Of a stretch of 64,000 nt of DNA, positions 5,441-59,440 are shown one piece after another. The notes beneath the pieces are model-generated. The model was not told the origin of the DNA. It saw only the letters and a program-made list of their open reading frames with translations, and ran no database searches. The stretch spans positions 186,001 through 250,000 of the forward strand of contig JAQGDQ010000294.1 of the NCBI GenBank assembly GCA_030141605.1. Reading direction: 5' to 3'. The position numbers were made by a program, and so were the translations under genes. The DNA is from Tubiluchus corallicola. Its lineage: Eukaryota > Animalia > Priapulida. Position 1 is the first letter of the stretch; every line of letters begins with the position of its first letter.

Positions 5441-6301
5441 AATGCAATCCTGAAAAATATATAGATCCCAGGTTGCCACAATAGATACAGGAAGTCTTGT
5501 GCCACACTTCGCGATCACAATGTTGTGGCGAATCAGCTAAGTATTTGCGAGAAACGTAGGGAACAACAATTTTACAATGTGAAATTATTTGGCAAGTGGG
5601 CGGAAGAGTTGGGACTACTTTTTTAGCAGACAGAAAGAAAACCGCTTTTCTGTTAAATTTTTTACAGAATTTGGTGTTATTTTGTATCTTTATGAGTTTT
5701 AATAAAAGCGTTTAGAGTTCTTATTAATCCATGTGTCTGATGCATCTGTTTTCGCCTGCCTGCGTTTGTTGTTTGCAGGTTGTCTGTTTTGTTTGAAACA
5801 AGCGCTTACCTGGATATCAGAGGAGGACGCCCATTCCCCCCTCGCAAAGGTAAAGTTTTTTGTTAAATTTAGTCATCAATGACCAATGGTAGAAGTGCTA
5901 CGCAGAACGCAAAAGAGGGGCATTTTCTACAAGTGTGGCCACCTATTTTCTTCATTTTTATTTTTAATAAAGTAAACAAAGAAAAGTGGAGAGGTCCATA
6001 CGCTGTTTATTTTCGACCTCTATCCTTCGACAGTAACGGTTACATTACATATTTAATTATACTACTACTATATTACCAGATCATAGATGTAATACAACTC
6101 AAGACGTAAATGCGCAAGTTTGTCGGTTGTTCAAATTCTACAATTTTGCATTGATACCATGTAAATGTATGATAGCTACTACTGACTTTGAAGGTTTGAA
6201 TCGGTTGTAATTGTAGTTACAAATTTAGAACCGAGTTCAGAATTGTTGAATTACCAATTATTGCTATTTAATCCTCTTTACAACCAAGACGTTATACTAG
6301 T

Positions 6302-6723
6302 TGTTAAGCACATACACGTTTCCCTACCTATTAAATGTGGTCTTGCCCCTTTAACTGTCATCAGTCATGTGACCAGGTAGTTGGCCAGGTAGACATTACC
6401 TGACATGCAATTCAATTGATATGATGTGAATGTTGTTGTTGATTTCTTATTGTTTTTTCTTGCAAGTTATAAGTGCCAAAACTCAGGGAGACCACATGTA
6501 AGTGTCTAATTATGTTTATTGAACTACTTTATGCTATTAGAACAATTTAGCTGTCATTTTTTTGTACAATTGTAGACGATAATCACGTTAGCTAATTTCG
6601 TAATGTACCTTTATCAAACTTACCTTTTTCATTGAAAACTTATTGCTGTAATTTATTATTACAGATAAAACGACAATTGCTGCATGTTAAACATTTGATG
6701 TTCTGGAGTTTAAATGTAGTACA
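6302..6723 (+). repeat. 5' LTR (422 bp)
   Basis: TGTTAAGCAC...TAGTACA. By eye identical to the 3' LTR except T7 versus T6 in one homopolymer (~6557-6563). Confidence 0.97.
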
Positions 6724-6984
6724 GTTTTATATGCCTCGCCGGGAGTTTCATGTTGCCATTAAGCAGTGACCTTGGTTCAGGTGCAGGAAGTTTGACATGC
6801 TTACCTGATAGCTTTGCTCATTATGGGCTTCTACAGCGTAGCTGGTTTCTACAGGTAAAGCTGCATGAACTCTGTGAACTTGGACGCGTCAGCTAATGGG
6901 CAATAGATGGCGCTTCGGTCTTGAAAGGTGATCCTAAAATTTTTGCAAAAATTGACACTAAGAGCAATTTAATTTCAATTGAAA

Positions 6985-9900
6985 ATGGCATCAGTGTTAT
7001 TCACTAAAAGCGAACTGGAAAATAAAGTAGTTGAGAAGCTGATGCAAATTCTTCGTAGTATGTCTTTGTCGGTTTCTGGCAACAAGGCAAATTTAGTGCA
7101 ACGAATTTTGAAGCAACAGGAAACCGGTCCTTGTATACCAGGCGCTCCAGATGAATCAGCTGATTTATCGCCACCCTCAATAGCAACTGACCAACCCATG
7201 CAAGAGAAACGTAGGAGCAAAAAGTCCACCAAATCCTCGAGTGTGACGTCATCGAAGAAGAGTGCCAAGCTAAGAAACCAAGAGCTCATGATTAAAGAAC
7301 AAGAACTCAAACTCCAAGCGATGAGAATACGACATGAATGCATGCAGAATGAGTGTAGTTCTGAAGATGAACGTGATGAAGACAGCTTTGGTTCTGCAGC
7401 TGATGTTGAGACCAGGTTAGTGGACCATGGAACATCAGACTCAAAGGTCAAAGCATGGCTAAGGTCAAGGTCAACATACACGGATCCGACAGTTAAACAT
7501 ACACAAACTACATGCGAAAGCGATGAGAATTACTTGTCTGAGGCCTTTGTTACTTTAGCAACTACTGATAAGTATGCGTTGGGAGCACTTGTTCTTGCTT
7601 CTAGTTTGCGTCGCACAGGAACAATGAGATGCTTAGTCATCATGGTAACAGAGGGTATTTCTTGTGATATTATGACACTTTTGAGAAATGCATTTGATTT
7701 GGTTGAACATGTCAGTATTATTGATAGTCATGAGTTTAAAAGGTTACAATTGTTAGGAAGACCAGAACTTAATGTGAGTTTTACTAAGCTACATTGTTGG
7801 AGGTTGACACAATTTAGCAAATGTGTTTTTGTAGATTCTGATACAATTGTATTAGATAATGTTGATGACATGTTTAGATTTAAAGAGCTTTCAGCTGCCC
7901 CTGATGTAGGCTGGCCAGATTGCTTTAACTGTGGTGTGTTTGTTTACAAGCCAAGTATTGATATGTATAATAAGTTAATGTTGTATGCTAAATCAGAATC
8001 CTGTACTTTTGATGGTGGGGACCAAGGATTATTGAATCAGTTTTTTAAAGACTGGTCAACTAGTTATGAAAAACATTTGCCATTCACTTATAATGCTGTC
8101 ATTCAGGGTCGGTACGGATATTTACCAGCTTTAATGCAATTTGGGAAAAATGTAAAAATTGCTCATTTTTTAGGTCAACATAAACCATGGCACTATATTG
8201 AACACGATTCGCATACAGCTCACGTGGCGCCACCTGTTGGCAAAAAAGGTTATGAATTCGACATAATGAACAAGTGGATACAGATCTTTGATACTGACGT
8301 TAGGCCACTGCTGGAAAACAAAAATATTCGTTTGCCTATGCAGCATCCAAGTTCTGGAAATCAGTGTCTGAATGCATCAGCGTCTGCTTTTATTCCACTA
8401 GCGCATGGCAGTAATGTACCGCGCGAGAATAGGCATGGTTTTAATTCTACTCAACCTACCATTTGTACTGATAATTTAAGCGACATGCCTAATCAATGCC
8501 ATCCACAGAGCAATGACATGGCTATGATCATGAACATCATGCTTGAAGCACAACGTCAACATACCAACATGTACAAAGCAATGCAACTTCCAATAGCAGA
8601 GTTGGACAAATTTGATGGTAGCGTTCTAAACTTTTGGCAATTCATGAGACGTTTTGAAGCCAACGTCGAGAGCTACACACAAGATGAGGCTGCGAGGTTT
8701 CAGAGATTAATGCAATTTTGCACTGGAAAAGCCAAAAAAGTTGTGGAAAGTTGTAGCTACATGGATCCCAGTCGAGCATACAAGCATGCAAAGCAGTTAC
8801 TCGTCGACAGGTTCGGCTCCTCGTTTATGGTTACTCAGGCTTGGATGTCAAAAATAATCGAGTTTGACCAAATCAAGGCCAATGACAACGAGAAGCTGCG
8901 AGAATTTGCTGACTTACTTTTAAGCTGTGTCGAGACGTTGAAAGCAATGAATAATCTCAGCGAAATTAATACACAGACAAGTCTCGTTCAGATTGTTAAA
9001 AAACTGCCATACAAATTCCATGATAAATGGAAAGACGTGGTGTCCAGGATAGCAAAACATGAAATCAGAAACCCATGTATTTATGATTTGCTAACATTCA
9101 TTCAGGAAAATGCTGAAAAAATGAACCACCCTGTGTATGGTAGCCTCGGCGATTGGGAAAAACCTAAACGAAGCATCTCTGCCAAAAATTATGCCACCTC
9201 TGCTAAAGCACCTCAAGTTCAAGCAAACAATGGCAAGGCGAAAACAAATCAAGAAAAGCCGCAAACCAAAAGCGCCCAATTTTGCAAGAAAGTTTGCATA
9301 TTTTGCAACTCAAATGAACATTCTTCTCTTGGACAGTGTGAAGCCTTTGCAGCTATGGACACCCCAGCTAAGTTGATGTTCGTGCGTAAGGAACGCTTCT
9401 GCTTTAATTGTTTGGCGAAAGGAAAACATAGAGCAGCTAGATGTTTCAAACCGTCTTGTAGTGTTAATGAATGCAACAAGAAGCATTCGGCTTTATTGCA
9501 CGATGCAGTCTGGAGGCTGAGCAGTTCTTCTTCAGATGTTAATAGGCTTGCCAGGGATGAGCAGCAAAGAAAAGACGAGACTGAAGCTACAAGCTGTGCA
9601 AATAGGGGCAGTTCTAAAGGAAAGAAGATAGCATTGCCTATGGTCAAAGTTCAAGTACATGTACATGGAAGAAAGCCAGTTGAAGCCATGGCTCTGTTAG
9701 ACCCTGGATCTACAAACACGTTTTGTTCCAGGAAGCTGTTTGACAGCATAGGTGCTGAAGGAAAAGAGGATGTTCTTACCCTAACCACAATCGAGAAACG
9801 CCAAAGTAAAGCAGACACTTTAGTTACAAGTTTCGTTGTTACGGACAGCATTGGTGAAAACAGAATCATGTTGCCTCATGTTTTTGTTCGACAGTCACTG

Positions 9901-10488
9901 ATGCTAGATACAGAATGCTTGGCATCAGTCGCAGATGTTCAAAAATGGCCGCACTTGAAAGAGATAGCGTCATCGTTAGTTGAGTATCACGGACACGATG
10001 AAGACCTAAGCTTACTAATCGGTCTTGACGTACCTGATGCCTTGGCCCCTCTGCAAGTTAGACGTGGTCCTGTAAACGCTCCTTATGCTGTTAAGACGAA
10101 GCTGGGATGGACGTTGAATGGGCCTATAGCGGGTGGCAAAGTACGCAACGTGTCAGTAAATAATTACGTTATGGTCAAAGAGTCGAAACGCTGGAAATTC
10201 GGACCTAGATTCCTGATGCTACCAGAAGATGATTGGCCTCGAACTGATATGACTTCGCAGAAGGATTTATTACAAGGTGACAAAGAAGTGAAGCACTCTC
10301 CAGTTGTTAATACCATAACAGCGACGACAATGGATGACACACAGCGACAGCGTAATATCATAAATGACTTGATGGATTGTTATTCTTCATTCTACAAGTT
10401 GAAGAAAAGTGTTGCATGGTTTCTTCGGTTCAAAACAGTATTAAAGAACAAGTTGCCAAAGAGACTTCGAGCTTTCCAAACAAACTGA
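6985..10488 (+). CDS. Chimeric polyprotein: SAP domain - coiled coil - glycogenin (GT8) domain - BEL Gag - 3x zinc knuckle - aspartic protease - post-RNase H linker
   Basis: First ATG at 6985. SAP-like LENKVVEKLMQILRSMSLSVSGNKANLVQRIL. Glycogenin EAFVTLAT...FTKLHCW...FVDSD...LSAAPDVGWPDCFN...FDGGDQGLLN...YGYLPA...HFLGQHKPW (7540..8313). Gag KFDGSVLNF...RFG from ~8587. Knuckles 9295..9501. Protease ALLDPGS (D at 9700) ...LLIGLD...TKLGWTLNGP. Confidence 0.95.
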   Translation: MASVLFTKSELENKVVEKLMQILRSMSLSVSGNKANLVQRILKQQETGPCIPGAPDESADLSPPSIATDQPMQEKRRSKKSTKSSSVTSSKKSAKLRNQELMIKEQELKLQAMRIRHECMQNECSSEDERDEDSFGSAADVETRLVDHGTSDSKVKAWLRSRSTYTDPTVKHTQTTCESDENYLSEAFVTLATTDKYALGALVLASSLRRTGTMRCLVIMVTEGISCDIMTLLRNAFDLVEHVSIIDSHEFKRLQLLGRPELNVSFTKLHCWRLTQFSKCVFVDSDTIVLDNVDDMFRFKELSAAPDVGWPDCFNCGVFVYKPSIDMYNKLMLYAKSESCTFDGGDQGLLNQFFKDWSTSYEKHLPFTYNAVIQGRYGYLPALMQFGKNVKIAHFLGQHKPWHYIEHDSHTAHVAPPVGKKGYEFDIMNKWIQIFDTDVRPLLENKNIRLPMQHPSSGNQCLNASASAFIPLAHGSNVPRENRHGFNSTQPTICTDNLSDMPNQCHPQSNDMAMIMNIMLEAQRQHTNMYKAMQLPIAELDKFDGSVLNFWQFMRRFEANVESYTQDEAARFQRLMQFCTGKAKKVVESCSYMDPSRAYKHAKQLLVDRFGSSFMVTQAWMSKIIEFDQIKANDNEKLREFADLLLSCVETLKAMNNLSEINTQTSLVQIVKKLPYKFHDKWKDVVSRIAKHEIRNPCIYDLLTFIQENAEKMNHPVYGSLGDWEKPKRSISAKNYATSAKAPQVQANNGKAKTNQEKPQTKSAQFCKKVCIFCNSNEHSSLGQCEAFAAMDTPAKLMFVRKERFCFNCLAKGKHRAARCFKPSCSVNECNKKHSALLHDAVWRLSSSSSDVNRLARDEQQRKDETEATSCANRGSSKGKKIALPMVKVQVHVHGRKPVEAMALLDPGSTNTFCSRKLFDSIGAEGKEDVLTLTTIEKRQSKADTLVTSFVVTDSIGENRIMLPHVFVRQSLMLDTECLASVADVQKWPHLKEIASSLVEYHGHDEDLSLLIGLDVPDALAPLQVRRGPVNAPYAVKTKLGWTLNGPIAGGKVRNVSVNNYVMVKESKRWKFGPRFLMLPEDDWPRTDMTSQKDLLQGDKEVKHSPVVNTITATTMDDTQRQRNIINDLMDCYSSFYKLKKSVAWFLRFKTVLKNKLPKRLRAFQTN
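7540..8313 (+). other. GYG: Captured glycogenin catalytic domain (in frame within the retrotransposon ORF)
   Basis: Colinear with animal glycogenin residues ~3-265. DxD (DSD, 7834-7842), TKLHCW Lys, FDGGDQG Asp pair (8011, 8020), acceptor Tyr in RYGYLP (8113), HFLG His and KPW Lys are all present. No introns. Confidence 0.93.
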
Positions 10489-11846
10489 CTGTTGCAGAAC
10501 TCGACTATGCAGAAGAAGAAATAATCAAGTATGTGCAGAAAGAGAGTTTGCCGAAAGAATATAAAGACTTAAGCACTAGTCAGAACTTTATTAAGTCTAG
10601 TTGTCTGGCGAAACTTGATCCATTCCTATGTGAAAAGCAACTTATTCGTGTAGGTGGCCGAATAAGGCATGCTGATGTCAACTATAATGCTAGGCATCCT
10701 GTTGTTTTACCAAAAGGACATAAATTATCACGTTTAGTCATCCAAGATTTCCACACTACGCATGGACATGCCGGCAAACAGCATGTAATGTCTTTGATCC
10801 GCCAGAAGTTTTGGATTGTTGGAATGCGTGGTATGGTACGCAAGCTTTTAGCTGAGTGCAGACAATGTAGATTGAATAGAGCAACGCCACTGCACCAGAA
10901 GATGGCTGACTTGCCTGTAGACAGATTGCAAAGCTCTGGAGTGTTTGCTACTGTGGGCACTGTTTGCTTTGGTCCAATTATGGTAAAATGTGGTCGCTCA
11001 GAAGTTAAACGTTACGGCATCCTTTTTACATGTATGGCTAGCAGAAGCATCCATCTTGAAGTTTTGTTCACGATGACAACTGATTCGTTCATAAAAGCAC
11101 TAGATAGGTTTTGCTCCAGAAGAGGTAAACCTGACAAACTAATGTCTGATTGTGGAAGTAATTTTCTGGGAGCAAACAAAGAGCTTCAAAAGTCTGTAGA
11201 ATCTTGGAACACCAATGTTGTCACAGAAAACTTACTTCAAAAACATATTGATTGGGACTTTTGTCCTCCTCGGGCATCTCATATGGGAGGAGCTTGGGAA
11301 GCACTAATTAAAAGTGTTAAAAAAGTTCTGCACTCAGTGGCTCAAGAGCAGGTACTTGATGATGAGGGTTTGAGCACCTTATTCTGTATTGTCGAGAACA
11401 TAGTCAATACAAGACCTCTGACCACAGCGTCTGATGATCCGAATGATTATGATTCTTTAACACCTAACCACTTCCTTCTGATGGGCAGAAATGCTCCTCC
11501 AATACTTCCACTGGGTCAGTTTTCTGCAGGAGATGTTTATAGGAAAAAGTGGCGACAGATACAATATCTTTCTAATGTATTTTGGAATCGCTGGAAATTA
11601 GAGTATTTGCCGATGCTCCAACAACGTTCAAAATGGCACAAAGAAAAACAGAATCTCAAGGAGGATGACGTTGTTCTAATTATGGATACAACTCCAAGAA
11701 ATTGTTGGCTGCTTGGACGTGTTGTAAAAACCCACGTCAGTAAGGATGGTCTGGTGAGGAGTGTCACCTTGAAAACCAAAGAGGGGTTTCTTAAACGTCC
11801 TATACACAAGTTGTGTTTCATTGAAGGTCAGATGATGAACGTGTGA
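10461..11846 (+). pseudogene. BEL/Pao integrase region, frameshifted from ORF1, first catalytic Asp mutated
   Basis: LTVAELDYAE...LDPF...IRVGGRI; HHCC finger (HTTHGHAG...CRQC); core GTVCFGP (expected GxDxFGP; codon GTT at 10962), SDCGSNF, GGAWE; C-terminal FWNRWKLEYL...DGLVRSV...RPIHKLC. Its frame is -1 relative to ORF1 at ~10440-10485. Confidence 0.88.
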
Positions 11847-11888
11847 TTGCTTTTTTGTTAGGTGATAAATGCTCGTGGAGACATTTAT

Positions 11889-11896
11889 GGGGGCGG
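11889..11896 (+). promoter_or_regulatory. Polypurine tract (PPT)
   Basis: GGGGGCGG immediately 5' of the 3' LTR TG, as is typical of BEL/Pao elements. Confidence 0.85.
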
Positions 11897-12317
11897 TGTT
11901 AAGCACATACACGTTTCCCTACCTATTAAATGTGGTCTTGCCCCTTTAACTGTCATCAGTCATGTGACCAGGTAGTTGGCCAGGTAGACATTACCTGACA
12001 TGCAATTCAATTGATATGATGTGAATGTTGTTGTTGATTTCTTATTGTTTTTTCTTGCAAGTTATAAGTGCCAAAACTCAGGGAGACCACATGTAAGTGT
12101 CTAATTATGTTTATTGAACTACTTTATGCTATTAGAACAATTTAGCTGTCATTTTTTGTACAATTGTAGACGATAATCACGTTAGCTAATTTCGTAATGT
12201 ACCTTTATCAAACTTACCTTTTTCATTGAAAACTTATTGCTGTAATTTATTATTACAGATAAAACGACAATTGCTGCATGTTAAACATTTGATGTTCTGG
12301 AGTTTAAATGTAGTACA
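11897..12317 (+). repeat. 3' LTR (421 bp)
   Basis: Direct repeat of 6302..6723, followed by TSD CTAGT. Confidence 0.97.
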
Positions 12318-14384
12318 CTAGTTAGAGAGCCTGTTTTCTTAGCATCATTCAGTTAACTCAGACGGGGACTTAAGTTGACAAAATCTAAATCACCAGTGAA
12401 TACTGAAAATACATATACTACTACTACTGAGTACTAGATATACATACGGGTATAATCTTAATCTTGTTAAGACCAATTCTAAGTTGGGAAGGGATGTACT
12501 GTCGCTAGTATGCATGCACCTCGCTCTCTTCCACCTTGGCTGCTCTCTATTATTGTTTGCAAATTAATCTATTTACTTATACATTATTGAGTGTTACGAA
12601 CGACGTTATCCACGCAGACTTCCACAATTGACAGTTCCTCGGACCGTAGCATGACAGTTTGAGCAATGCGAAAAATCTTTGACGTCGGTGCTGTTATCTT
12701 TTGGACAAAAGACGAAGCAAAAATCTGTAGTACATGTAGTTACGTTACTTACTTGCATTTTCACCCCAGTGTTTACTGTTTAGTAGTTATGTTTACAATG
12801 CGCGTTGCTGAAGATGATGGAAAATTGTGGAAAAATTGAAATTTTTCATTTTAGCTGGGTAAGCCACCTGGCAATTATGTAATTTTCCACTGTTTTCTTG
12901 GTATAATCATAATATGAGTGGCCTGCACTAATGACAAAAATAGCATGAAATGTATTTATTTATCTCCTGCATGCTTAATAGTACCCACAAACATTCAGAT
13001 ATTTTTAAAATATAATAAAATATATATATGGTTGGAAAAAATAATAATGTTAAAAATAAATAGTGAAATATAATGTATAACAACAATTAAACAAAATATC
13101 ACTTTTCTGTTTAGGTCTGTTGCGTATTGACATAATAGGTATATAATACCTTTTATCAGTTTTGTGGACTCTCTTTACAATATCTGCATTTTTTGGCAAA
13201 CGTCATTTCTACCAGAAAAGATAGACCTCTTCAACATCGTAAACCTGAACTAAGTGGCTTACCTGACTCACTTCTGTCATGGCCTTAAGTAAAATGACTT
13301 ATTTTTGTTAAAATGTCGTAACGGTTTCATTACTTGAAAAGTGAGAACTATATCAGCAAAGTGTATAAAGAGGATATCAGTGCATAAATTGAGTTGAATG
13401 TGACTGATCTAGTGACTATCGACAGTCAAAAAAGATTTATACCATTGTTTTGGCGCAGTGGAAGACTGGCGGGTGCTTCGAAGGGCAGATTTCTTTTATT
13501 TTAGAATTCCAATGCCTACAATTATAAGTAAGGGTCTCCCTAGTTTGATGGACTTGTGAACGTAATTTTGGACGCGATGGGCATAATTTCGCGCGCCCAT
13601 TCACAAAATAATTTAATGCAAGTAATATACCTATGTAATTGTTGACTCAGTGGGTTTTTATGTATAATGCCAGTTAGACGTTGGTTTAAACGTGATGGAC
13701 TTCATATGAAGTGCAAATCAATTTGATTAGTTTTTGCCACGTGGTTTTTTAACTACGTCCATTAAGTTAAGGACAGGAATGCGTGGCATCAACAAGTGCG
13801 TCATGCCATCTTTTTTAGAAAGTAGCAGCACCGAAACGAAAAAATGTGGATGCTTCGTAGACTTTTTGGCCTTTTTCAAATGGAAATTTGTAGTTTAGTA
13901 GATTTAATTTCATAAAGTAATTATTGACAGTCCTTGTGCTTTAATACTACAAAATTTGCCCTGGAAGTTTAAAAGTATACATTCTTCGAACATGCCTTAC
14001 ACCAACGATCTCAGAGAGTCCCAACTAAAAGGCCCGACTTTGGATATCATTGACCTCAGCCATTCTTCACTTTCAATGATGCATTCCCCTGATGCTGAGG
14101 ACTGTACATAATTATAAAGACGAAAATTTGACAATTGCCCACTACAGTATGTATTTTGCTTTGCAAATCAGTGAACAATTTGATTTCGACCTCCATAAGT
14201 CGTAACAAATTATAACAAATTACATTTGCTTGCATCACATTCAAATTTTAAAACAAGTTACTGTTTCTCGACTTTCTATATACCAAATGCTGTTTATAGG
14301 ACATTTGTAGGATAAATACGAAATAAGTAATAAACGAAGTACTTTCTTTTTCAGAGATGACAAGAGTATGAGTGTCCCTTAGAG

Positions 14385-16034
14385 ATGAGTATTGAAGGCA
14401 TTCCTGGAAAAACCTTTTATGCAAAACACAACAAAATGAGTCTTCCTTGTGAAAAACGGGAAAGCAAGCTTTTAAAGCTAGAGAAATGTACTGAAATGAT
14501 GAGAAAAGAGCCCATCTTCAAGAGCTATGTTCCACAGTTGGCAAGGCATGATCCTCCGTTTTGTTGGAAGAGATTTTATCGACAGCAAGCTGCCTTTGAC
14601 TATATAAAATCCAGCCGCAGCAAAACTCTGCATGTATTTGCTTTTGAGAATGAAACTGGAGATGGTTCCAGGCAATATCTTGTAACATCCTATCAACAAT
14701 TCTGGCATACCTACAGTCAAATGGCACCTGATGATCGTCGTTATTACGAGATAATAGAAACTGGTAAAAAGTGTCATTTATACTTTGATTTGGAGTTTGA
14801 GAAAAGTTTAAATCCTGCCAGTGATGGAGCAAGAATGGTGGAGAGTTTTATTCTCTTTGTCTGTAGTCAGCTGAAAAAGCTGTGGGATATAGACTGTGGT
14901 AGGCAGCATGTTGTTGATTTAGATTCAACAACCGACTCAAAGTTCAGTCGACATTTGATTTTCAATCTACCAGGAAAAATTGCCTTTGAAAACAATTTTC
15001 ACGTTGGAGATTTTGTGAAATTAATAAGTTCAGCCTTGAAAGCTGCTAGAGAAGTGTCTGTTACATCTTTTTCTGTACCAGAATCAAGCATTGATGCAGT
15101 GATACAGTCTTACATAGATTCAAAAAGTCACATGTATATGATTGACCGAATTCATGCAGCCACATTGGACACCAGTATAGAATTATTTGAAGATTCGTGC
15201 ATATTGTCTGAGAGCACAGAGAAAACGTGTGTAAATGATACAACAACCATTTGCCGTTTGAATGCAAGTACTGATTTGATTAGTCCATCTGTCAACTCAT
15301 TTTGTAACAGGCATCAGCGAGTCTATCGTCACCGCCATCATCATCGCCTGACTGTAGATGAACTTTCTTCTTTGTTTGTTAAAGACAAAAATGATGAATT
15401 TCGATTGTTCTGTGACGAGGGTGTTTACACCCGGAACAGAAACTTTAGAATATTTCTTTCGCAGAAATCTGGAAAAAACAATCCTTTAGTGATATCCAAG
15501 GAGAACAAATTTCATCCGCAGAAGCTTCCTGGATGCTCAGATGATGGTGCATTCTTCTTGAGTACACTGGTGTCAAATGTTAGTTTGTCGCCTGACACCG
15601 AGATTCTAATTTGCCGAAAACGGCAGCAGATGGCAGAAGAGTTTGATGCGTCGTCAAGACTACCGGTTGCACATGACGTGCATCACGTTAGTTATGAAAG
15701 TTCGCCATTTCCTAGGATCGATGATTTTGTTTCGTCTGTTGTGAAAAACGAAGAAGGACGGGGTTGCATCAGAAACTGGACATACTTTGAAAAATCTGGG
15801 CTTATATCTTACGATATAACTGGAAATCGTTATTGTGATCATATTAAGCGACAACACAAGAGCAACAATATCATCATTGTTGTTGATTTGAAGAGATGCA
15901 TTTACTATCAAAAGTGCCACGATCCTGATTGCAGATCAGTTAACTTTAAATCACAAGAACATGCCATTCCATGTGCCGTATTTGATGTGTCTTCTGATTC
16001 AGCAGACAAAGGGTTTGTTCATGTGCAGAGTTGA
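14385..16034 (+). CDS. PRIMPOL: DNA-directed primase/polymerase PrimPol (CCDC111)
   Basis: AEP motifs HLYFDLEF (DxE), KFSRHLIF (SxH) and FCDEGVYTRNRNFR. UL52-like zinc finger RYCDHIKRQHKSNN...YQKCHDPDC. Splice acceptor tttctttttcag ends at 14354. Confidence 0.95.
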   Translation: MSIEGIPGKTFYAKHNKMSLPCEKRESKLLKLEKCTEMMRKEPIFKSYVPQLARHDPPFCWKRFYRQQAAFDYIKSSRSKTLHVFAFENETGDGSRQYLVTSYQQFWHTYSQMAPDDRRYYEIIETGKKCHLYFDLEFEKSLNPASDGARMVESFILFVCSQLKKLWDIDCGRQHVVDLDSTTDSKFSRHLIFNLPGKIAFENNFHVGDFVKLISSALKAAREVSVTSFSVPESSIDAVIQSYIDSKSHMYMIDRIHAATLDTSIELFEDSCILSESTEKTCVNDTTTICRLNASTDLISPSVNSFCNRHQRVYRHRHHHRLTVDELSSLFVKDKNDEFRLFCDEGVYTRNRNFRIFLSQKSGKNNPLVISKENKFHPQKLPGCSDDGAFFLSTLVSNVSLSPDTEILICRKRQQMAEEFDASSRLPVAHDVHHVSYESSPFPRIDDFVSSVVKNEEGRGCIRNWTYFEKSGLISYDITGNRYCDHIKRQHKSNNIIIVVDLKRCIYYQKCHDPDCRSVNFKSQEHAIPCAVFDVSSDSADKGFVHVQS

Positions 16035-17959: not shown

Positions 17960-18031
17960 TGGAGATGCGGGGTATCGAACCCCGGGCCTTTCGCATGCAA
18001 AGCGAACGCTCTACCACTGAGCTACATCCCC
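17960..18031 (-). tRNA. tRNA-Ala (anticodon TGC)
   Basis: GGGGATGTAGCTCAGTGGTAGAGCGTTCGCTTTGCATGCGAAAGGCCCGGGGTTCGATACCCCGCATCTCCA. 72 nt, full cloverleaf, A and B boxes, G3:U70 pair, no encoded CCA. Confidence 0.97.
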
Positions 18032-20586
18032 GATCACTGTTTAACATTCTCCACAGCGGTTGATATGTGGGTCACAGTATTGTGGCGCTACCTTCAATAA
18101 GAAATATAAAATTATTTCATTACAATGTACAAAATTATAATAATTCTAAACTTTCATTGTATCCGTTGGCGCGTATTACATTCTCTGATAAAAACAGTGC
18201 TAGTTATTTGCGAATCATGAACTTTTTGCTTGCTAGTCGGCTTTTAGTCTATAGCAGGGGCCTATAACTATTGTTCTTCATTCAATTCATACTTATGACC
18301 CTGATTATAACACAGAATAATCATTTTATGATCTTAACGAGCAATGAAAAAAATCAAAAAATCCAAAATAAACTGCATTATTTTCATGTGAAAGGAACAA
18401 AGAGATTATTTCAATACATAGAATTTAAAACGAGTTATACACAAACGAGTATGGTGATAAACTGTTGTTTCTCATCGTTCAAAAGCATAGATGACTAGGA
18501 ATTTGGATTTAACTTTCATTTGTTATATATTTATAAAAATAATATTATTGGTGTTTAATTTTTTCTTGTTGCTTTCTCTCTTAAAAACCTGCCTAATTCA
18601 ACATTATCCCTCTCCAAATTATTGATACATTTGCAGTTCTGTAAACGTTTGAAAAATACAGGTCTGCATTAATGTTACTTTTTACAAGTGAAATTTCAAT
18701 TGATACTTTTGTGTCATGAGCCTGTTCTTTTTATTCCATATTCCATAAACCATTACACATAAAATCAATACACTTAAATTTATTGTAATTAGACAATTAT
18801 AATCAAATGACCAATCTCGAAAAGACAAATGTACGCCATCTTTTTTCCATAGTGGGACTGCTATATATGCCTACTATATGGCTTATTTATGTAACGTTTA
18901 CACTGTTTGCTAAAAAATGCTATCTTAGTTTTCAGCAAGTTGCATAAATCCATGTGACTTATACAAACTATATATTATGTTTAAGCTGATCAGTGCGTCA
19001 GAATTATAATACTTTGCTAATATGTAACTGCACATAGCCACTATAAAAGAAGTTTCAAAAAACAATAAAATTTATACAGAAGTCACATATTAAATTAGTG
19101 CAACTAATTTTCGTTCTTTTCAATTTATGTAGTGCAAACTCATTTCTTTTTTGTTACAAAAATGAATACAAAAATACAAATTTTGCATGCGAAAACTTAA
19201 ATCTTAAAGTAAACTTAGTTTTACAACTAGGCGTTACATACAGACCATTCTGCCTTGCAGATTTTCAAACCACTAGTCATCATACGGATTGCACAGTTAG
19301 CTCATTCTAAGAATATGTATATATTCCAAGAAATTATTACCCAATAAGTATATATTTTGCAGGAAATGAACTTTAAGTTTTAAAACATCTTAAGCATTTT
19401 CACTTATAATTACTCATATCATTAAAGCTTGAAATAAATTTATGCAGTTTTTGGTGCTAAACTGCTTCGCTGACTGTCATATCACATAAAGGCCCCGTCA
19501 CACCGAACAACAACCATGAAAACTTCACACAAAACAATGAATTTCTTGATTTTGAAGATGGTCAGATCTCCGAAGATCGTGGACCTGGGCAAAGTAAAAA
19601 AGAATTGCCTGATTTGCCTCTTCTGCACTACACTGGTTTCTTCCTCGCGGTCATACAATTCCTATGAACGTAGTCACATCGTACTAAAAGTGTTGTGCAA
19701 ACGTGAACAGACAAATCCAAAATCATAGCCTGACACAAGTGAGATGATACTACACGTACGACAATTTTAGTACAACAGAGTAAAACTCATAGTACGACTA
19801 CAACATTCATACCACACCCATAATGTGCTTCCATGGTGATCTGCTTCTTCCACGATCTCGTGACGATGAATGACCTTGAACATAATCAAAGTTTTTCTGC
19901 AAACATGAAGATCTTCTAGGCTATGATAATACGTCCCTAATCCTTGCCATTTCAACAACGCTTCTGCAAAGATGTAAAAGACTTCACTGACGGAAACTTA
20001 GCCAATTTCTAAAGTTGCACCAAATTCTCCAGTTGGTGTGACGGGTTTTAAGCTAAAAATGCTTATTACGCATACAAAATAACAAGCAATGATAGTGTGA
20101 CAATGTTTACTAAAAGCAGACCTCCAAAAATAAAACGAAATGGTGATAATGCAAGGTTCTTGCTCTAACAAGTAGACAAGTTACCAGAATCATAGTAGAC
20201 ACATCACAGCATTTAATGTAATAATTGAGAAAATGCAATTTACAATTAACAGTGTTTCGTTACTTTTATACTACAGAAATGGGGTAAATATAACTGATAA
20301 AACACAATTAGGCTTGAATGATATACATTTCACTAACGTCACTGCAAATATCATCAAAAAAATTTGTTTTAACTTTAAGTTAAAGACAATCACATTATAT
20401 AAGAAAATGTTGAAAGACCTTGCAGTCTTAAAATAATTATTTTTATTTCTTACACAAACTTTTACCGCAACGGGCTTCATCAGGTGAAAAATTTCAGAAA
20501 ACATGTTAAAAACAGTATATACCAGCATTAGAAACAGAAATAGCAGCTAAACGTCACTGGTTTAAGATACAAAAGATAGAGAAAAA
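18019..20586 (+). repeat. Duplicated block 1, copy A (paralogous to 27769..30097)
   Basis: Near-continuous high identity from GAGCTACATCCCCGAT to AAAAGATAGAGAAAAA. Paired spurious ORFs in the track (e.g. 20271..20528 vs 29783..30040) confirm it. Confidence 0.95.
19491..20048. mobile_element. PIF/Harbinger-like MITE (internally deleted duplicate at 29175..29560)
   Basis: Terminal inverted repeats GGCCCCGTCACACC...GGTGTGACGGGTTT in a TAA/AAA context. Confidence 0.55.
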
Positions 20587-24573: not shown

Positions 24574-24666
24574 AGGGTATGAGGACAAAAAATAGCAGGG
24601 CTTCAATCTATTAAGTGTGCAAATGGAACTAAACTCAGTTAATATTGTTCTTTTCAGGAGAAGTTA

Positions 24667-26154
24667 ATGAGTCCTGGCTGCTTGCTATTTATCATTCTTA
24701 CTCTGTCCCTTTATTTGATCATTCGCAGAACAACAGTGTACACCCACAACAAATACAGGGGATATGTCGTCTTCTCTGCAGAAACCTTCTACGAAGGCGT
24801 TGCACCACCGGCAGCTGTTGATAACGAAGAGGCGCAGACAAAATGCAGAACTAAAAAGCCCGGTCCAGAAGAATTGCTCATCAACAACACTTACTGGCAG
24901 ATGGATGAGAGTGAGACAAACTTCTTCTTCAGTGCTTATTGGGATGGCAGAGAGATTAGTGTAGGTGGAGGAAAAGTATACCATGAAAAGGCTAATATTA
25001 TAAGAGTATTTGGCATGAGAGATGTTACACAGGGCAAGCCTAATTTGTTTTGCTATCTTTGGTACGGTGATCACGTGACTGTAGCCAATGTGAATGAGGA
25101 AATTATATGGTTCAATCAGCCAGGTCATATAGACATAGCAAATAAACGATCACAGTACCACCCATATCTCTATAACTGTCCAGTGAAAACTGCTGAGATT
25201 CCAGCCTACATCTCGTTGTCGACATCTTGGTGCAAAATTCCCACAAACTTACTGGAAGTAAAAGCCAGAAATTACACACAGCCCCGGAGAGATTTTGCTA
25301 TATGCGTGAAAGGTCTAAATTATGAAGATGACGTCTCCATAAAATTGATCGAATGGATCGAGATCAATAGAATATTAGGCGCAAAGAAAATTTTCTTCTA
25401 CAAGTACAGCATCAACCCAGCTGTCCAAAAGCTTTTAGACTATTATACCGACCAAGGAGTAGTTGAAGTACACACGTCAACACTTCCGGGACACCAGCCA
25501 AACAATCCCACTAATCGGACAAGATTTCTCGAAGTAAAGGTGTTGCAGACATGGATGGATGAAGTACTCATATATAATGACTGTTTCTATAATCACATGA
25601 AGGAATACAACTATATCATTCCACTAGACATTGATGAAGTTTTAGTGCCAACAAAGCACAGGACTTGGCAAGAAATGCTTCCTTGGGTGATCAAAACTAA
25701 TGTATACAAGGATCCTAACTCAAAATATAACACCATTGTAAAAAGATGCGGATCATACGAATTCAGGAACGTTTTCTTTTTGCCACAAATAAATAAAGAA
25801 CCTATTGACACTGTTCCAAAATATCTAACAACACTTCAGTATATAAAAAGAGTCAAAGAAACCTCAATATTAGGATTAAACATGAAAGGATTCTTTAACA
25901 CAGACTATGTGATTCTAGTCCACAATCACACACCCTTTAAGGTATTCTCCTATGTATGGAGCTGGTGCAGTGTTCAAGAACGCCAAGGGTTGTTGCATCA
26001 TTACCGTGACAAGTGCCCTACTGACGACTACACTCATCGCTGCAAAAATCTCAATGTAACCATAACAGACATGACAATGTGGCGATACACCGACGAACTA
26101 ACACAAAGAACAGAGAAAGCGATGAATGACTTAAGTATTCCAATACCAAAATGA
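24667..26154 (+). CDS. Glycosyltransferase family 92 (DUF23, GALT-1-like), type II membrane protein, copy A
   Basis: N-terminal TM; FSAYWD; FAICVKGL...LIEWIEINRILGAKKIFFY; YNDCFY...PLDIDE (DxD); VHNH; LHHYR. An acceptor ttttcag lies 9 nt upstream of the ATG, so an upstream exon is possible. Confidence 0.9.
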   Translation: MSPGCLLFIILTLSLYLIIRRTTVYTHNKYRGYVVFSAETFYEGVAPPAAVDNEEAQTKCRTKKPGPEELLINNTYWQMDESETNFFFSAYWDGREISVGGGKVYHEKANIIRVFGMRDVTQGKPNLFCYLWYGDHVTVANVNEEIIWFNQPGHIDIANKRSQYHPYLYNCPVKTAEIPAYISLSTSWCKIPTNLLEVKARNYTQPRRDFAICVKGLNYEDDVSIKLIEWIEINRILGAKKIFFYKYSINPAVQKLLDYYTDQGVVEVHTSTLPGHQPNNPTNRTRFLEVKVLQTWMDEVLIYNDCFYNHMKEYNYIIPLDIDEVLVPTKHRTWQEMLPWVIKTNVYKDPNSKYNTIVKRCGSYEFRNVFFLPQINKEPIDTVPKYLTTLQYIKRVKETSILGLNMKGFFNTDYVILVHNHTPFKVFSYVWSWCSVQERQGLLHHYRDKCPTDDYTHRCKNLNVTITDMTMWRYTDELTQRTEKAMNDLSIPIPK

Positions 26155-27768: not shown

Positions 27769-30097
27769 GAGCTACATCCCCGATTACTGTTTAACATTCT
27801 CCACAGAGCTTGATATGTGGTGCTACCGTCAATGAGAAATATAAAATTATTTCAACACAGTGTACAAAATTATAATATTTCTAAACTTTCAGTGTATCCA
27901 ATAGCGCGTATTACATTCTCTGATAAAAACAGTGCTAGTTATTTGCAAATCATGAACTTTTTGCCTGCTAGTCGGCTTTTAGTCTATAGCAGGGGCCTAT
28001 AACTATTGTTCTTCATTCAATTCATTCTTATGACACTATAATTATAACACAGAATAATAATTTTTATGATTCTTAATGAGCAATGAAAAAAATCAAAAAT
28101 TCCAAAATGAACTGGATTATTTTCATGTGAAAGGAACAAAGAGATTACTTAAATACATAGAATTTAAAACGAGTTATACACAAACGAGCATGGTGATAAA
28201 CTGTTGTTTCTCATCGTTCAAAAGTATAGATGATTAGGAATTTGGATTTAACTTTCATTTGTTATATATTTATAAAAATAATATTATTGGTGTTTAATTT
28301 TTTCTTGTTGCTTTCTCTCTTAAAGACCTGCCTAAATCAACATTATCCCTCCCCAAATTACTGATACATTTGCAGTTCTGTAAACAATTGAAAAAATACA
28401 GGTCTGCATTAATTTTACTTTTTAAAAGTGAAATTTTAATTGATACTTTTGTGACACGAGACTGTTCTTTTTATTCCATAATCCATAACCAATAATACAC
28501 AAAATGAATACACTTAAATTTATTGTAATTAGACAATTATAATCAATCATTCTTGAAAAGACAAATGTACGTCATGTAACTTTTACACTGTTTGCTAAAA
28601 ATGCTATCTTAGTTTTCAGCAAGTTGCATAAATCCATGTGACTTATACAAACTATATATTATGTTTAAGCTGATCAGTGCGTCACAATTATAATACTCTG
28701 CTAATATGTGACTACACATAGCCACTATAAAAGAAGTTTCAAAAAAACAATAAAATTTATACAGAAGTCACATATTAAATTAGTGCAACTAATTTTCGTA
28801 CTTTTCAATTTATGTAGTGCAAACTCATTTCTTTTTTTGTTACAAAAATGAATACAAAAATACAAATTTTGCATGCGAAAACTTAAATCTTAAAGTAAAC
28901 TTAGTTTTACAACTAGGCGTTACATACGGACCACTGTCTTGCAGATTTTCAAACCACTAGTCATCATACGGATTGCACAGTTAGCTCACTCTACGAATAT
29001 GTATATATTCCAAGAAATTATTAGCCAATTGTATATATTTTGTAGGAAATAAACTTTAAGTTTTAAAACATCTTAAGCATTTTCACTTATAATTACTCAC
29101 ATCATTAAAGCTTGAAAAAAAATTATGCAGTTTTTTAGTGCTAAACTGCTTTGCTGACTGTCATATCACATAAAGGCCCCGTCACACCGAACAACAACCA
29201 TGAAAACTTCACACAAAACAATGAATTTCTTGATTTTGAAGATGGTCAGATCTCCGAAGATCGTGGACCTTGGGCAAAGTAAAAAAGAATTGCCTCTTCT
29301 GCACTACGACTACAACATTCATACCACACCCATAATGTGCTTCTATGGTGATCTGCTTCTTCCACGATCTTGTGACGATGAATGACCTTGAACATAATCA
29401 AAGTTTTTCTGCAAACATGAAGATCTTCTAGGCTATGATAATATGTCCCTAATCCTTGCCATTTCAACAACGCTTCTGCTAAGATCTAGAAGATTTCACT
29501 GACAGAGACTTAGCCAATTTCTAAAGTTGCACCAAATTCTCCAGTTGGTGTGACGGGTTTTAAGCTAAAAATGCTTATTACGCATACAAAATAACAAACA
29601 ATGATAGCGTGACAATATTTACTAAAAGCAGACCTCCAAAAATAAAACGAAATGGTGATAATGCAAGGTTCTTGCTCTAACAAGTAGAATCGTTACCAGA
29701 ATCATAGTAAACACATCACAGCATTTAATGTAATAATTGAGAAAATGCAATTTGCAATTAACAGTGTTTCGTTACTTTTATTCTACAGAAATGGGGTAAA
29801 TATAACTGATGAAACACAGTTAGGCTTGAATGATATACATTTCACTAACGTCACTGCAAATATCAACAAAAAATTTTGTTTTAACTTTAAGTTAAAGACA
29901 ATCACATTATATAAGAAAATGTTGAAAGACCTTGTAATCTTAAAATAATTATTTTTATTTCTTACACAAACTTTTACCGCAATGGGCTTCATCAGGTGAA
30001 AAATTTCAGAAAACATGTTAAAAGCAGTATATACCAGCATTAGAAACAGAAATAGCAGCTAAACGTCACTGGTTTAAGATACAAAAGATAGAGAAAA
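27769..30097 (+). repeat. Duplicated block 1, copy B
   Basis: Paralogous to 18019..20586. It begins with only the 5'-most 13 nt of the tRNA-Ala. Confidence 0.95.
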
Positions 30098-50613: not shown

Positions 50614-51918
50614 ACTTCACCGTCAGTCATCGAGTTGCGTAAATGAATTAATCGTAACTAGTGTAAACTGTTAGAAATTCTGTAATGTCAGCAAGTAAAT
50701 AGCACGAGTATATGTGTTATGCATAGATTCATGCAACCTAGTTAGTTAAAATATTATTAGTCAATGAGTGCTCGCAAAACCATGTACCACACATCATAGT
50801 CCTATGCATGAAAATGTGAAGTCGTGTCATAGTTGTTTAATCAAACTTGAGAAACTGTTGGTTATGATGGGTTCAGTCTCGTTTTCTAATGTAAAGTTCA
50901 CATTCTCGTTTAGCTCAGGATATTTACGATGAGGATTCAAAAGCAACTGAATTCGTCGGACACAAGTTCCGATTTGGTGTCACCTTTAAGCAAAGTTGCT
51001 TACACAATTATTGGTTTTGCTTCCACAAATCCCTGTTTCGTCTATGAGAAAACAGGCGACTTGTGACAGCTAGTCGATAGTGCGCTAATGTCCAGCAGCC
51101 AGACTGCTTTAAAAAAGAAATTCCAGCTTAAAAACCTGTGCCATTATGTATGTAAAAAATATGGCTATAAAATTCATTATACCTTTATTTCTAGCTCCCT
51201 CACTCTTGTGGAATGTTCGGCTACTTACAGATACATATTCGATTTTATTCGCACATATTACATATGATAACAGTGAAATTGAAGCTGAGATAAAGCTAAT
51301 TAAGTGTCACATCACAGCTTAATTGCTTCTTGTGTCTGACGTCGCAGATACGGATGTTTAGTTATAAAGAATTAGAATTATTGCTCAACTATGCCATGAC
51401 AGTTTAAACGTCTTCTACTACAGACGACTCGGTTTTTCCTTCGTTTGTGTAAGTATGATGTACGTGTAATGTAATTATAATTTATTACACCGTGTGTTTG
51501 AATAATTGTATTATTGTATAATTGTTTACATATGTTTGTAATATTGGTTACATATATGTTTGTAACCTTGTTGTTATCACCCATCATTTGCACCAGAATT
51601 TTTGTACTATATGTTATTTTCTATGTTCACACTGTATTCATTTACTAATATGTACTGTACCATTCGACTACATAATAAATAATAAATTAATTTGTCTTGT
51701 TGCATCATCTCACATAACAGTCACACTTCGTTATAATGCCAAATTCATTTAAAGCCCAACTTTTTTGCAATCCCAATGTAGACATAAAGAGAGGATTATG
51801 ATGCCCTGTTATGATAACGACGAAGAGGGTATGAGGACAAAAAATTGCAGGGCTTCAATCTATTACGTATGCAAATGGAACTAAACTCAGTTAATATTGT
51901 TCTTTTCAGGAGAAGTTA

Positions 51919-53424
51919 ATGAGTCCTGGCTGCTTGCTTTATGGAATTCTTCTGCTCTTTATCATTCTGACTCTGTCACTGTATTTGATCATTCACAGAA
52001 CAACAGTGTGCACCCACAACACATACAGGGGATATGTCGTCTTCTCTGCAGAAACCTTCTACGAAGGCGTTGCACCACCGGCAGCTGTTGACAACGAAGA
52101 GGCGCAGACAAAATGCAGAACTAAAAAGCCCGGTCCAGAAGAATTGCTCATCAACAACACTTACTGGCAGATGGATGAGAGTGAGACAAACTTCTTCTTC
52201 AGTGCTTATTGGGATGGCAGAGAGATCAGTGTAGGTGGAGGAAAAGTATACCATGACAAGGCTAATATTATAAGAGTATTTGGCATGAGAGATGTTACAC
52301 AGGGCAAGCCTAATTTGTTTTGTTATCTTTGGTATGGTGACCACGTTACGGTAGCCAATGTGAATGAAGAAATTATATGGTTTAATAAGCCAGATTTGAT
52401 AGACATAGCAAATAAGCGATCACAATACCACCCATATCTCTATAACTGTCCAGTGAAAACTGGTGAGATTCCAGACTACATCTCGTTGTCGACATCTTGG
52501 TGCAAAGTTCCCACAAACTTACTGGAAGTAAAATCCAGAAATTACACACAGCCCCGGAGAGATTTTGCTATATGTGTGAAAGGCCTGAATTATGAAGATG
52601 ATGTCTCCGTAAAATTGATCGAATGGATCGAGATCAATAGAATATTAGGCGCAAAGAAAATTTTCTTCTACAAGTACAGCATCAACCCAGCTGTCCAAAA
52701 GCTTTTAGAGTATTATACCGACCAAGGAGTAGTTGAAGTACACAAGTCAACACTTCCGGGACACCAGCCAAACAGTCCCAATAATCGGACAAGATTTCTC
52801 AAAGTAAAGCAGTCGCAGAAGCGGCTAGATGAAGTACTCATGTATAATGACTGTTTCTATAATCACATGAAAGAATACAACTATATCATTCCACTAGACA
52901 TTGATGAAGTTTTAGTGCCAACAAAGCACAGGACTTGGCAAGAAATGCTTCCTTGGGTGATCAAAACTAATGTATACAAGGATCCTAACTCAAAAAATAA
53001 CACCATTGTAAAAAGATGCGGATCATACGAATTCAGGAATGTTTTCTTTTTGCAACAAATAAATACAGAACCTATTGACACTGTTCCAAAGTATCTAACA
53101 ACACTTCAGTATATAAAAAGAGTCAACGAAACCTCAATATTAGGATTCAACATGAAAGGATTCTTTAACACAGACTATGTGATTCTAGTCCACAATCACA
53201 CACCCTTTAAGGTATTCTCCTATGTATGGAGCTGGTGCAGTGTTCAAGAACGCCAAGGGTTGTTACATCATTACCGTGACAAGTGCCCTACTGATGACTA
53301 CACTCATCGCTGCAAAAATCTCAATGTAACCAAAACAGACATGACAATGTGGCGATACACCGACGAACTAACACAAAGAACAGAGAAAGCGATGAATGAC
53401 TTAAGTATTCCAATACCAAAATGA
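51919..53424 (+). CDS. Glycosyltransferase family 92 (DUF23), copy B
   Basis: Near-identical paralogue of 24667..26154 with the same motifs and a 6-aa longer TM segment. Flanking homology spans 51534..53626 versus 23670..26356. Confidence 0.9.
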   Translation: MSPGCLLYGILLLFIILTLSLYLIIHRTTVCTHNTYRGYVVFSAETFYEGVAPPAAVDNEEAQTKCRTKKPGPEELLINNTYWQMDESETNFFFSAYWDGREISVGGGKVYHDKANIIRVFGMRDVTQGKPNLFCYLWYGDHVTVANVNEEIIWFNKPDLIDIANKRSQYHPYLYNCPVKTGEIPDYISLSTSWCKVPTNLLEVKSRNYTQPRRDFAICVKGLNYEDDVSVKLIEWIEINRILGAKKIFFYKYSINPAVQKLLEYYTDQGVVEVHKSTLPGHQPNSPNNRTRFLKVKQSQKRLDEVLMYNDCFYNHMKEYNYIIPLDIDEVLVPTKHRTWQEMLPWVIKTNVYKDPNSKNNTIVKRCGSYEFRNVFFLQQINTEPIDTVPKYLTTLQYIKRVNETSILGFNMKGFFNTDYVILVHNHTPFKVFSYVWSWCSVQERQGLLHHYRDKCPTDDYTHRCKNLNVTKTDMTMWRYTDELTQRTEKAMNDLSIPIPK

Positions 53425-57403: not shown

Positions 57404-59440
57404 TTGCCTGCTGATAGAGAGTTTCCACTACATCCACAGAACAGTTTATCATGATTGTGGGAGCAGAACTGACGTCACCTTACAGTCACAATGACAGTAG
57501 ACAAGAATCATTTGTACCCTAGAGCGCGTTCTACAATCACAACCTGACTGTAGATTTCTTGTAGTCAGCGCTGACAGTTTCCGCAAGATTTCGAGCTAGG
57601 CAGCACCAACACATATACTTGAGTTTGTAAAATGTGCTTTGTCTCAACTTGCGACAGCTAATGAACTTAAATCACTTAATTTCAAAAATTCATCAAGACA
57701 GTCGGGCTGTATGGAAATGCGCGGGACGTGATGATGACCGTGACTTTGGTGACATCATTTCAGAATCAGAATTGTTTGCTGTTCGACTGTAACAGAAACT
57801 CTCTAACAACGCACCGATTTGTTTGAAGTACATGCCAACAATGTGCAGCGCATTACGCAAGATCTTGTATCGTAAATGTTGAATAACGTGTACACCAACA
57901 GCAACGAAGACAATATCATAATAGCAAAAAACAAACTGATAAACAGACAAAACCGAACATTGAAGGAAAACCAGATGATTGCACAGACATTAGTTCAAAA
58001 TAAAGAATGTTCTAAAATAGTGAAAACTACAATAGGTTTTTTTAAATCAAAGTTTAAGTTAAATAACAATTACCTCAGATAGTTAATTTTGTTAAAGTTT
58101 CAAAGCTATACACAGCTCAGCGAATCCACTAAGACAGGTACTGGCTCCTTTTTATCACATTCACCTTGATGACATCACTGCAGTGATCGTCTGTGACGTC
58201 AGTGTGACGTAGAGCTCATTTTCATGACATCAGCGTCTTATAGCAATCTTTGCTTATGTGAAATGTGCTTGATGTGCAAGAAAGATGTCTACCATTGGAC
58301 AAATTGTGGCTAGTTTGTGACATACGCGATAGCTATATTCGGTTGCCATAAATAGCCTTTCAAAGGTAATCATTCAAATATCAGAAACAATTCCTAACTT
58401 TTATAGGCAAGAAAATGTATATTTAGGACAGTAAATTAAAATGAGATCAAGTTTAAACAATCGTCCGGTTTTCCTTTAATACTGCTAACAGTTGAAATAC
58501 ATCACATTACATTACATATGTAACAACAAAAGCTAAAAACATAAAGAGACATGGGCTGCAAATAAAGTGACTGTAATACTGTACAGATAACACTAGTACA
58601 GTCAAACAGTAAAGTACAATGAAAGCAGCTGGTAGCATACTTTACTTCAGGGTCAGAAGAATTCACACAACTAATCCTTACCTTAAAAAATTAAGGAAAG
58701 TAAAAAAATGACAAGAATTATCAAACTACATGTGTTATACGACAGACACAAAGCCATAAACTTACTAAAAAAGAAAAATTATGTAAACTTAAGAAAAGTG
58801 TGTCGAAACATTTTGCATTTTTCGACTTAATTTATGCAGGTAAAATACATTTACCTGTCACTTCATCTTCTCTTTCTGAGTTTTTATCCTCTGCTGCTTC
58901 TTCATTCATCATGAGAAATTGCACCGAAGCAATTTACAGCACATTTATCACATTACAAGCCACATATTAAATTATGAACATTAACAAATATCAGTGTTAG
59001 GAGTTTCAAATCTTGGATAAGCATGCGACCTTTGAACATGGCACGTACACCATCAGTGGCAGCTCTAGTGGCTATCTACAAAACAACATCTTAGCTTGTG
59101 TTAGCAACAATAGTGTACAAAATATGAACACAAGTTTAATACTGCTAAGAAACCTAAATACTACTTTGCATGTTAATTTTGCCTAATAATAAAAAACTGT
59201 TGTTAATTACCAATAATAATTAGCATGTAATTTGCAGAAGGTCCTGCAACAGTAGCTACTCTGTAACTGGGAGTTGTGTTGTTTCTTCCAACTAATTTAC
59301 CGTGACAAACATAAAATATACAAAAGGTGACTTCATTCCATTGAAGCAGTAACACAAAGTCACCAAAGTATAGAAGCAAAGGCTGAAGCTGCTTCTTTGT
59401 TGGCAGGTGTGAAGTGTCATGTGGAATTATGTATTGTATT

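Follow-up and report, generated by a model that had tools for sequence, protein, structure and literature searches.

The 64,000-nucleotide window analysed here, positions 186,001 to 250,000 of contig JAQGDQ010000294.1 from the priapulid Tubiluchus corallicola, contains a long terminal repeat (LTR) retrotransposon of BEL/Pao type (6302-12317) whose Gag carries an in-frame glycogenin-type catalytic domain. The first open reading frame of the element (ORF1; 6985-10488, + strand) is a single open frame of 1167 codons that encodes Gag with the glycogenin insert, then protease and, past a deletion of reverse transcriptase (RT) and RNase H, a pre-integrase linker. Pfam searches of ORF1 placed a SAP domain in the Gag N-terminal region (PF02037; amino acids (aa) 21-43, 7045-7113, E 1.6e-5), Glyco_transf_8 at aa 189-405 (E 4e-14), DUF1759 at aa 543-686 (E 1e-8), and a weak Asp_protease_2 at aa 889-948 (E 0.03). 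A first-pass annotation of this stretch had described a 1167-codon frame with a glycogenin domain between the SAP and capsid regions, and both Pfam and the match to Protein Data Bank (PDB) chains bear this out. Of the families that it expected, Glyco_transf_8 and DUF1759 were recovered, but DUF1758 was absent among the six families listed.

Window positions 7528-8328 aligned to solved glycogenin-1 chains at E 2.7e-84 over chain residues 3-263, approximately the whole catalytic domain. This alignment sets the domain at ORF1 aa 185-445, about 7537-8319 (+), close to the span of 7540-8313 first proposed, with the DxD at 7834-7842 and the codon of the acceptor tyrosine at 8113 (both +). The PDB match and an AlphaFold2 model indicate that a Rossmann-type GT8 catalytic domain is present. 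With an alignment as input, AlphaFold2 gave the domain a pLDDT of 85 and a pTM of 0.88, a score driven by the glycogenin alignment, and prediction from the single sequence reached a pLDDT of only 33. Base shuffling of the domain's 263 codons produced no stop-free frame in 20,000 attempts. Numbered from the PDB chain alignment, 13 of 14 key glycogenin positions are kept, including metal- and UDP-glucose-binding residues and the acceptor Tyr195; the roles of these positions, except those cited, are ones that we presume. The equivalents of K86, D102, D104, D163, Q164, H212, and K218 are retained, as are all four inter-subunit contact residues (Y195, Y197, D160, and W128), and every motif listed at first pass is present. 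What we take to be the glycogen-synthase-binding motif occurs in 278 of 361 cellular glycogenin matches and in neither ORF of the element, and the C-terminal tails of seven glycogenins gave no match in the window below E 0.4. The tail had already been reported as missing, and both searches agree. With this C-terminal synthase-binding domain missing, we class the domain, as judged from its sequence, as glycogenin-type rather than as a full glycogenin.

To verify the junctions, we compared contigs of sequencing runs X1, X3, X5, and X6 with window positions 5800-12800. Six runs were listed, four of them with half or more of the sampled words; three studies gave cover, and the contig-based comparisons rest on 23 of 1024 aligned contigs. 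No X6 sequence aligned to this interval, and no RNA run was among those listed as containing the sampled words. An 874-nt X1 contig (7508-8381, depth 1053) spans the whole domain, extending about 60 letters beyond its 3′ edge but just 29-32 beyond its 5′ edge, a borderline value under the 31-letter rule applied here. In X3, one contig (6696-7810) crosses the 5′ junction and another (8020-8720) the 3′ junction, each by hundreds of bases; depths in this run are unusable (an adapter-flanked piece near 7844-7950 reaches about 1e5). None of the 11 listed contig joints skips the glycogenin domain. Misassembly, named beforehand as the result that would overturn the fusion, did not occur: contigs of two studies bridge the junctions, and we consider it very unlikely.

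The same contigs show that the fusion is not confined to the window copy. One X1 contig (depth 154) joins 6295 to 12317 and represents the empty site; the insertion is thus polymorphic, with another sample holding the unoccupied locus. Three X1 Gag contigs have depths of 926-1105. The ratio of 6 to 7 between element and empty site suggests, as a rough sign, several copies, and the equal depth of domain and Gag suggests that most copies in X1 carry the domain. In X5, where the copy is more distant, a glycogenin piece (7560-8150) has the same depth as the Gag, protease, and integrase pieces (17-25). In the data seen, the fusion is family-wide.

The domain is far from any known glycogenin. It is at most 57% identical by BLASTP to any of the 361 cellular matches, whereas ten sampled cellular glycogenins share 58-79% identity among themselves, and in a 67-row tree its end branch measures 1.5 changes per site, compared with a median of 0.23. 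Given this long branch and weak support, the tree gave no supported placement. Change along the branch is strongly uneven. Near-invariant columns (95% conservation across 89 cellular rows) are kept at 80 of 86 positions, compared with 34 of 121 variable columns (p 2e-22), and among surface-variable columns only 8 of 62 match the commonest residue; against a mostly insect glycogenin set, 94 of 114 columns are kept. This pattern shows purifying selection along the branch, which may have acted either in the host or in the element.

Differences between copies bear on where that selection acted. The X1 domain contig differs from the window at 4 of 874 sites (0.5%), three of the four differences being synonymous, and the three X1 Gag contigs differ at 18 of 1037 (1.7%; p 0.009). 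In X5, the domain differs at 41 of 591 sites (6.9%) with no gap, compared with 309 of 2464 (12.5%) for four Gag/Pol pieces (p 7e-5); this sum excludes a fifth piece, which comprises the leader and N-terminus (47/471). These tests assume independence between sites and take the X5 glycogenin piece to be part of the element. One would not expect a neutral passenger to evolve more slowly than Gag/Pol, and the comparison therefore points to selection within the element. The first-pass annotation had allowed for a single, recent, unselected capture. Multiple copies in X1, a long branch with conserved positions, and slower between-copy divergence all speak against this, and near-identity to a host mRNA is excluded only indirectly. 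We regard it as highly probable that the domain is selected and family-wide.

In searches for other fusions, the best matches were plain glycogenins. Among proteins of 641-2043 aa, the best 120 of 607 matches were all glycogenins without Gag, as were the best 120 of 1858 matches below 641 aa and the best 150 of 11,964 HMMER matches to an 872-aa Gag-glycogenin query, the only one of these searches that also covered proteins longer than 2043 aa. A protein with both parts should outscore plain glycogenins, and the HMMER listing should therefore have shown another fusion. Pfam found no Gag in 20 of the 361 distinct matches that had odd lengths or N-terminal extensions. Scans of metagenome and viral contigs, which detect close relatives only, found no relative. 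In the ESM Atlas, aa 1-860 gave no usable match, and aa 150-560 retrieved only glycogenin/GT8 clusters, all below 0.9, among them a viral GT8 cluster as a weak row (0.81). Glycogenin-like GT8 genes in insect DNA viruses, which we presume to be a precedent, were not confirmed by our literature search. No published fusion of a glycogenin or glycosyltransferase with a retroelement was found in titles and abstract openings, a scope that took in little of subscription papers, repeat databases, and supplements. The earlier remark that no described retroelement with a glycogenin domain was known thus still holds in the literature and protein searches, and the fusion is real and apparently undescribed.

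The remainder of the element identifies its family and reveals several defects. A perfect 5-bp target-site duplication (6297-6301 and 12318-12322) flanks a 5′ LTR of 422 bp (6302-6723, +, TG...CA) and a 3′ LTR of 421 bp (11897-12317, +). The LTRs are 99.8% identical, with a single 1-nt indel, in a T run, as their only difference; together with the perfect duplication, this indicates a very recent insertion. Downstream of the glycogenin domain, ORF1 continues through the DUF1759 capsid region (8587-9150, from Pfam and the BEL/Pao Gag-protease alignment), three Cys/His knuckles of the nucleocapsid found by pattern matches (aa 771, 806, and 825; 9295-9501), and the aspartic protease region (9649-10176, placed by alignment to BEL/Pao polyproteins as well as by Pfam). 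ORF2 (10416-11846) encodes integrase with an H2C2 finger, a core, and DUF5641, from Pfam and BEL/Pao alignment; all of these features are on the + strand. A short G-rich run precedes the 3′ LTR. Summed X1 depth over the LTRs (6302-6723), which does not equal copy number, is at least ten times that of the internal part and suggests many solo LTRs or related families.

Between protease and integrase, alignment to BEL/Pao proteins reveals an in-frame deletion (breakpoint 10176-10186) in which about 575 aa were lost. Residues 917-1494 of one such protein (P0121) have no counterpart in the window element; RT and RNase H are absent, and the Pol order of protease, RT, RNase H, and integrase is incomplete. 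Near 10450-10470, a frameshift also separates ORF1 from the integrase frame. The integrase core keeps 88 of 98 invariant columns, but the first position of its acidic triad (codon 10962) is replaced, and at this codon X1, X3, and X5 contigs all differ from the window. Given the deletion, the frameshift, and the lost integrase residue, the window copy cannot have copied itself, and it probably moved in trans. An X3 contig 99% identical over 9667-10184 continues into at least 255 letters absent from the window, and X5 contigs at 10140 and 10179 likewise run past the breakpoint into at least 255 window-foreign letters; relatives therefore keep sequence at the deletion site. By the International Committee on Taxonomy of Viruses profile (PMC8742986), the window copy falls short of a complete BEL/Pao member and is classed here as a non-autonomous derivative. 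The first-pass annotation had overlooked these defects, including the non-autonomous state.

The affinity to BEL/Pao is otherwise clear, and the best matches of its Gag are BEL/Pao polyproteins. Among 11 inspected of 80 related proteins, Gag-protease is 31-39% identical over about 550 aa and integrase 45-49% identical, and a SAP domain also occurs in two BEL/Pao proteins (P0140 and P0142). Members of this group (Belpaoviridae) have LTRs of 0.2-1.2 kb, an 18-nt primer-binding site for tRNA-Arg or tRNA-Gly, and a polypurine tract (PMC8742986). The element resembles them in LTR length, DUF1759 capsid, Cys/His knuckles, protease, and integrase with DUF5641 (PMC8742986; PMC3118150). Unlike them, it has a glycogenin domain of 260 aa within the N-terminal region of Gag, found in none of the 80 related proteins, and the window copy lacks RT and RNase H. 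Compared with animal glycogenin-1 (PDB ID codes 1ZCT and 7Q0B; PMC12267440), the domain shares the whole catalytic region, most key positions, and the predicted fold; it differs in its distance from all 361 matches, its missing tail, and its location within a retroelement polyprotein.

Two further systems offer partial parallels. As in animal LTR-mediated retrocopies, a host coding sequence lies in frame within a moving non-autonomous LTR element (PMC5131818). Such retrocopies are young (<1% from the parent in Drosophila) and replace part of the element's ORFs (PMC5131818), whereas the insert described here has Gag on either side of it, is separate from the RT deletion, lies far from every known glycogenin, and is better conserved between copies than Gag. 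Like the AlkB demethylase of orchid Ty3/Gypsy elements, CHROMO, and env, the domain is a host-type addition fixed in an LTR family (PMC9289625), but AlkB occupies a separate ORF, and the enzyme described here transfers sugar and belongs to the structural polyprotein. According to the same paper, acquired LTR-element domains mostly act on RNA or DNA, and "glycosyl" does not appear in its main text (PMC9289625).

These observations can be combined into one proposal: a recent, RT-less copy of a multi-copy BEL/Pao element bears a domain that was likely captured long ago from a host mRNA, has likely been kept by selection on the element, and is predicted to face outward on the immature particle and to glucosylate its own tyrosine with short chains. 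We give this proposal as a whole about an even chance. The host glycogenin mRNA may plausibly have been captured by template switching, and the window copy would have been mobilised by relatives that keep the deleted segment. In the solved capsid of the Atlas belpaovirid, the N-terminus of the capsid protein faces outward and the capsid assembles with a nanobody fused there (10.64898/2026.03.22.711591); a domain N-terminal to the capsid could similarly be displayed on the immature particle in the cytosol. Gag assembly might then crowd the domains into pairing as in glycogenin. Glycogenin-1 transfers glucose from UDP-glucose onto Tyr195, its inter-subunit contact is formed by Y195/Y197/D160/W128, and its C-terminal domain binds glycogen synthase (PMC12267440). 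Lacking that tail, the element's domain would make only a short α-1,4-glucan on its own tyrosine and no glycogen granule. Whether the domain catalyses self-glucosylation at all is, from its residues, close to a coin toss. The glucan, or pairing with host glycogenin, could dock particles on glycogen-handling proteins or granules with a benefit in the germline. This docking and germline step is the least supported of the proposal; as to the benefit, docking is the most likely form, with shielding as a second possibility. A glycan coat, targeting to glycogen granules, and heterodimers with host glycogenin had already been put forward at first pass as conceivable roles. More tentatively, we consider it possible, on the doubtful side, that an active BEL/Pao family exists whose capsids carry a lasting α-glucan coat, docking on glycogen stores or hiding from germline surveillance.

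A number of observations weigh against this proposal. On the enzyme itself, the invariant Ser134 is Cys in the window copy, a residue found in none of 89 cellular rows, and a C-loop proline tied to efficient GYG1 self-glucosylation has no match in the element alignment. Human GYG2 keeps the same contact residues and barely self-glucosylates (PMC12267440), so motifs do not prove activity. The protease may also cut the domain off at maturation. With regard to selection, the synonymous excess in X1 falls short of significance when taken by itself (p 0.07), the long branch could belong partly or wholly to the host lineage, and cellular glycogenins themselves have end branches of about 1 or more in 4 of 66 rows. 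Third-position GC is 77 of 263 in the domain and 324 of 799 in the rest of ORF1 up to the deletion (p 0.001); the domain has therefore not taken on the element's composition. The contigs contribute further points. At 8608, where the capsid region starts, the X3 contig that crosses the 3′ junction shows a 1-base gap, and the protein of that copy would stop shortly beyond the glycogenin domain. The glycogenin piece of X5, 93% identical to the window, is joined to Gag by none of that run's contigs. In X1, the bin 7672-7905 holds about 80 depth units beyond the main contig, from a further piece at least 85% alike that is either a variant copy or perhaps an exon of a host glycogenin. Finally, four other genes of the window (PrimPol, two glycosyltransferase family 92 (GT92) genes, and one with ankyrin repeats) likewise consist of single long ORFs, and missing introns are therefore weak evidence for mRNA capture.

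The substitution at Ser134 and the near-inactivity of GYG2, a glycogenin fold with a kept acceptor tyrosine (PMC12267440), lend themselves to a rather unlikely alternative in which the domain was selected as a non-catalytic or weakly catalytic adaptor. It would pair with host glycogenin or bind glucan, tethering Gag to granules or damping priming as GYG2 does, and the kept dimer contacts and the missing synthase-binding motif would fit such a role. However, K86, D102, D104, D163, Q164, H212, and K218 have been kept over a branch of 1.5 changes per site, beyond what an adaptor needs. Moreover, the Ser134 codon differs from the window in X1, X3, and X5 contigs, and the change looks private to the window copy.

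The base composition of the domain and the unexplained X1 piece would also suit a passenger, that is, a fairly recent LTR-mediated retrocopy of a very divergent host glycogenin mRNA, in frame by luck and multiplied without benefit. LTR elements, Pao included, take up pieces of host mRNA, often in frame when young, and keep moving non-autonomously (PMC5131818). We hold this to be unlikely, since the domain differs between copies half as much as Gag/Pol or less in two data sets. At window positions 7931 and 7935, a single contig accounts for all X1 depth; therefore, no second sequence at least 85% alike aligned there, with the proviso that filters can hide one. The insert is a whole catalytic domain, from residue ~3 to 263, with Gag in frame on either side, and the neighbouring host PrimPol is ~45% identical to its human counterpart (two aligned stretches), so that no extremely fast-evolving host is indicated.

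It is improbable that the domain instead acts in trans, transferring glucose to a different protein (a host restriction factor, or Gag at another place), or that it supplies primed glucan for the benefit of the host, self-glucosylation being incidental. Kept catalytic residues would be needed here too, and the long branch with its changed surface-variable columns leaves room for a new acceptor, but the acceptor tyrosine and its neighbours are also kept, and a polymorphic multi-copy insertion is easier to reconcile with selection on the element than with a role for the host. An assembly chimera of host gene and repeat is scarcely credible: the private changes and homopolymer 1-nt indels of the window copy could be sequencing errors, but two studies bridge the junctions and X1 depth is equal over domain and Gag.

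Domains kept by LTR elements are taken as pointers to conflicts between host and element, and most of the described ones have RNA, DNA, or membranes as their targets. If selection has indeed kept a self-glucosylating domain here, glycogen metabolism would be linked to retrotransposon replication through a conserved sugar-priming enzyme in Gag, a connection of which we found no report, and a retroelement Gag would for the first time be known to contain a carbohydrate-active enzyme. The element would also provide a natural test of a glycogenin without its synthase-binding tail, and of a capsid lattice as driver of glycogenin pairing.

The rest of the window contains several further genes and repeats. 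About 2 kb downstream of the element lies PrimPol (14385-16034, +), one uninterrupted ORF of 549 aa that matches human PrimPol in PDB (E 2e-67) and the Herpes_UL52 zinc finger in Pfam; the human PrimPol gene has many exons. The two GT92 genes (24643-26151 and 51895-53421, both +) are near-identical single ORFs 27 kb apart and are probably a local duplication, and the ankyrin-repeat frame (55487-57427, −) encodes 647 aa. A 2-kb direct repeat is present at about 18000-20300 and 27770-29810, its copies 92-99% identical and 9.7 kb apart, and a tandem repeat with an 85-bp period occupies 325-1092.

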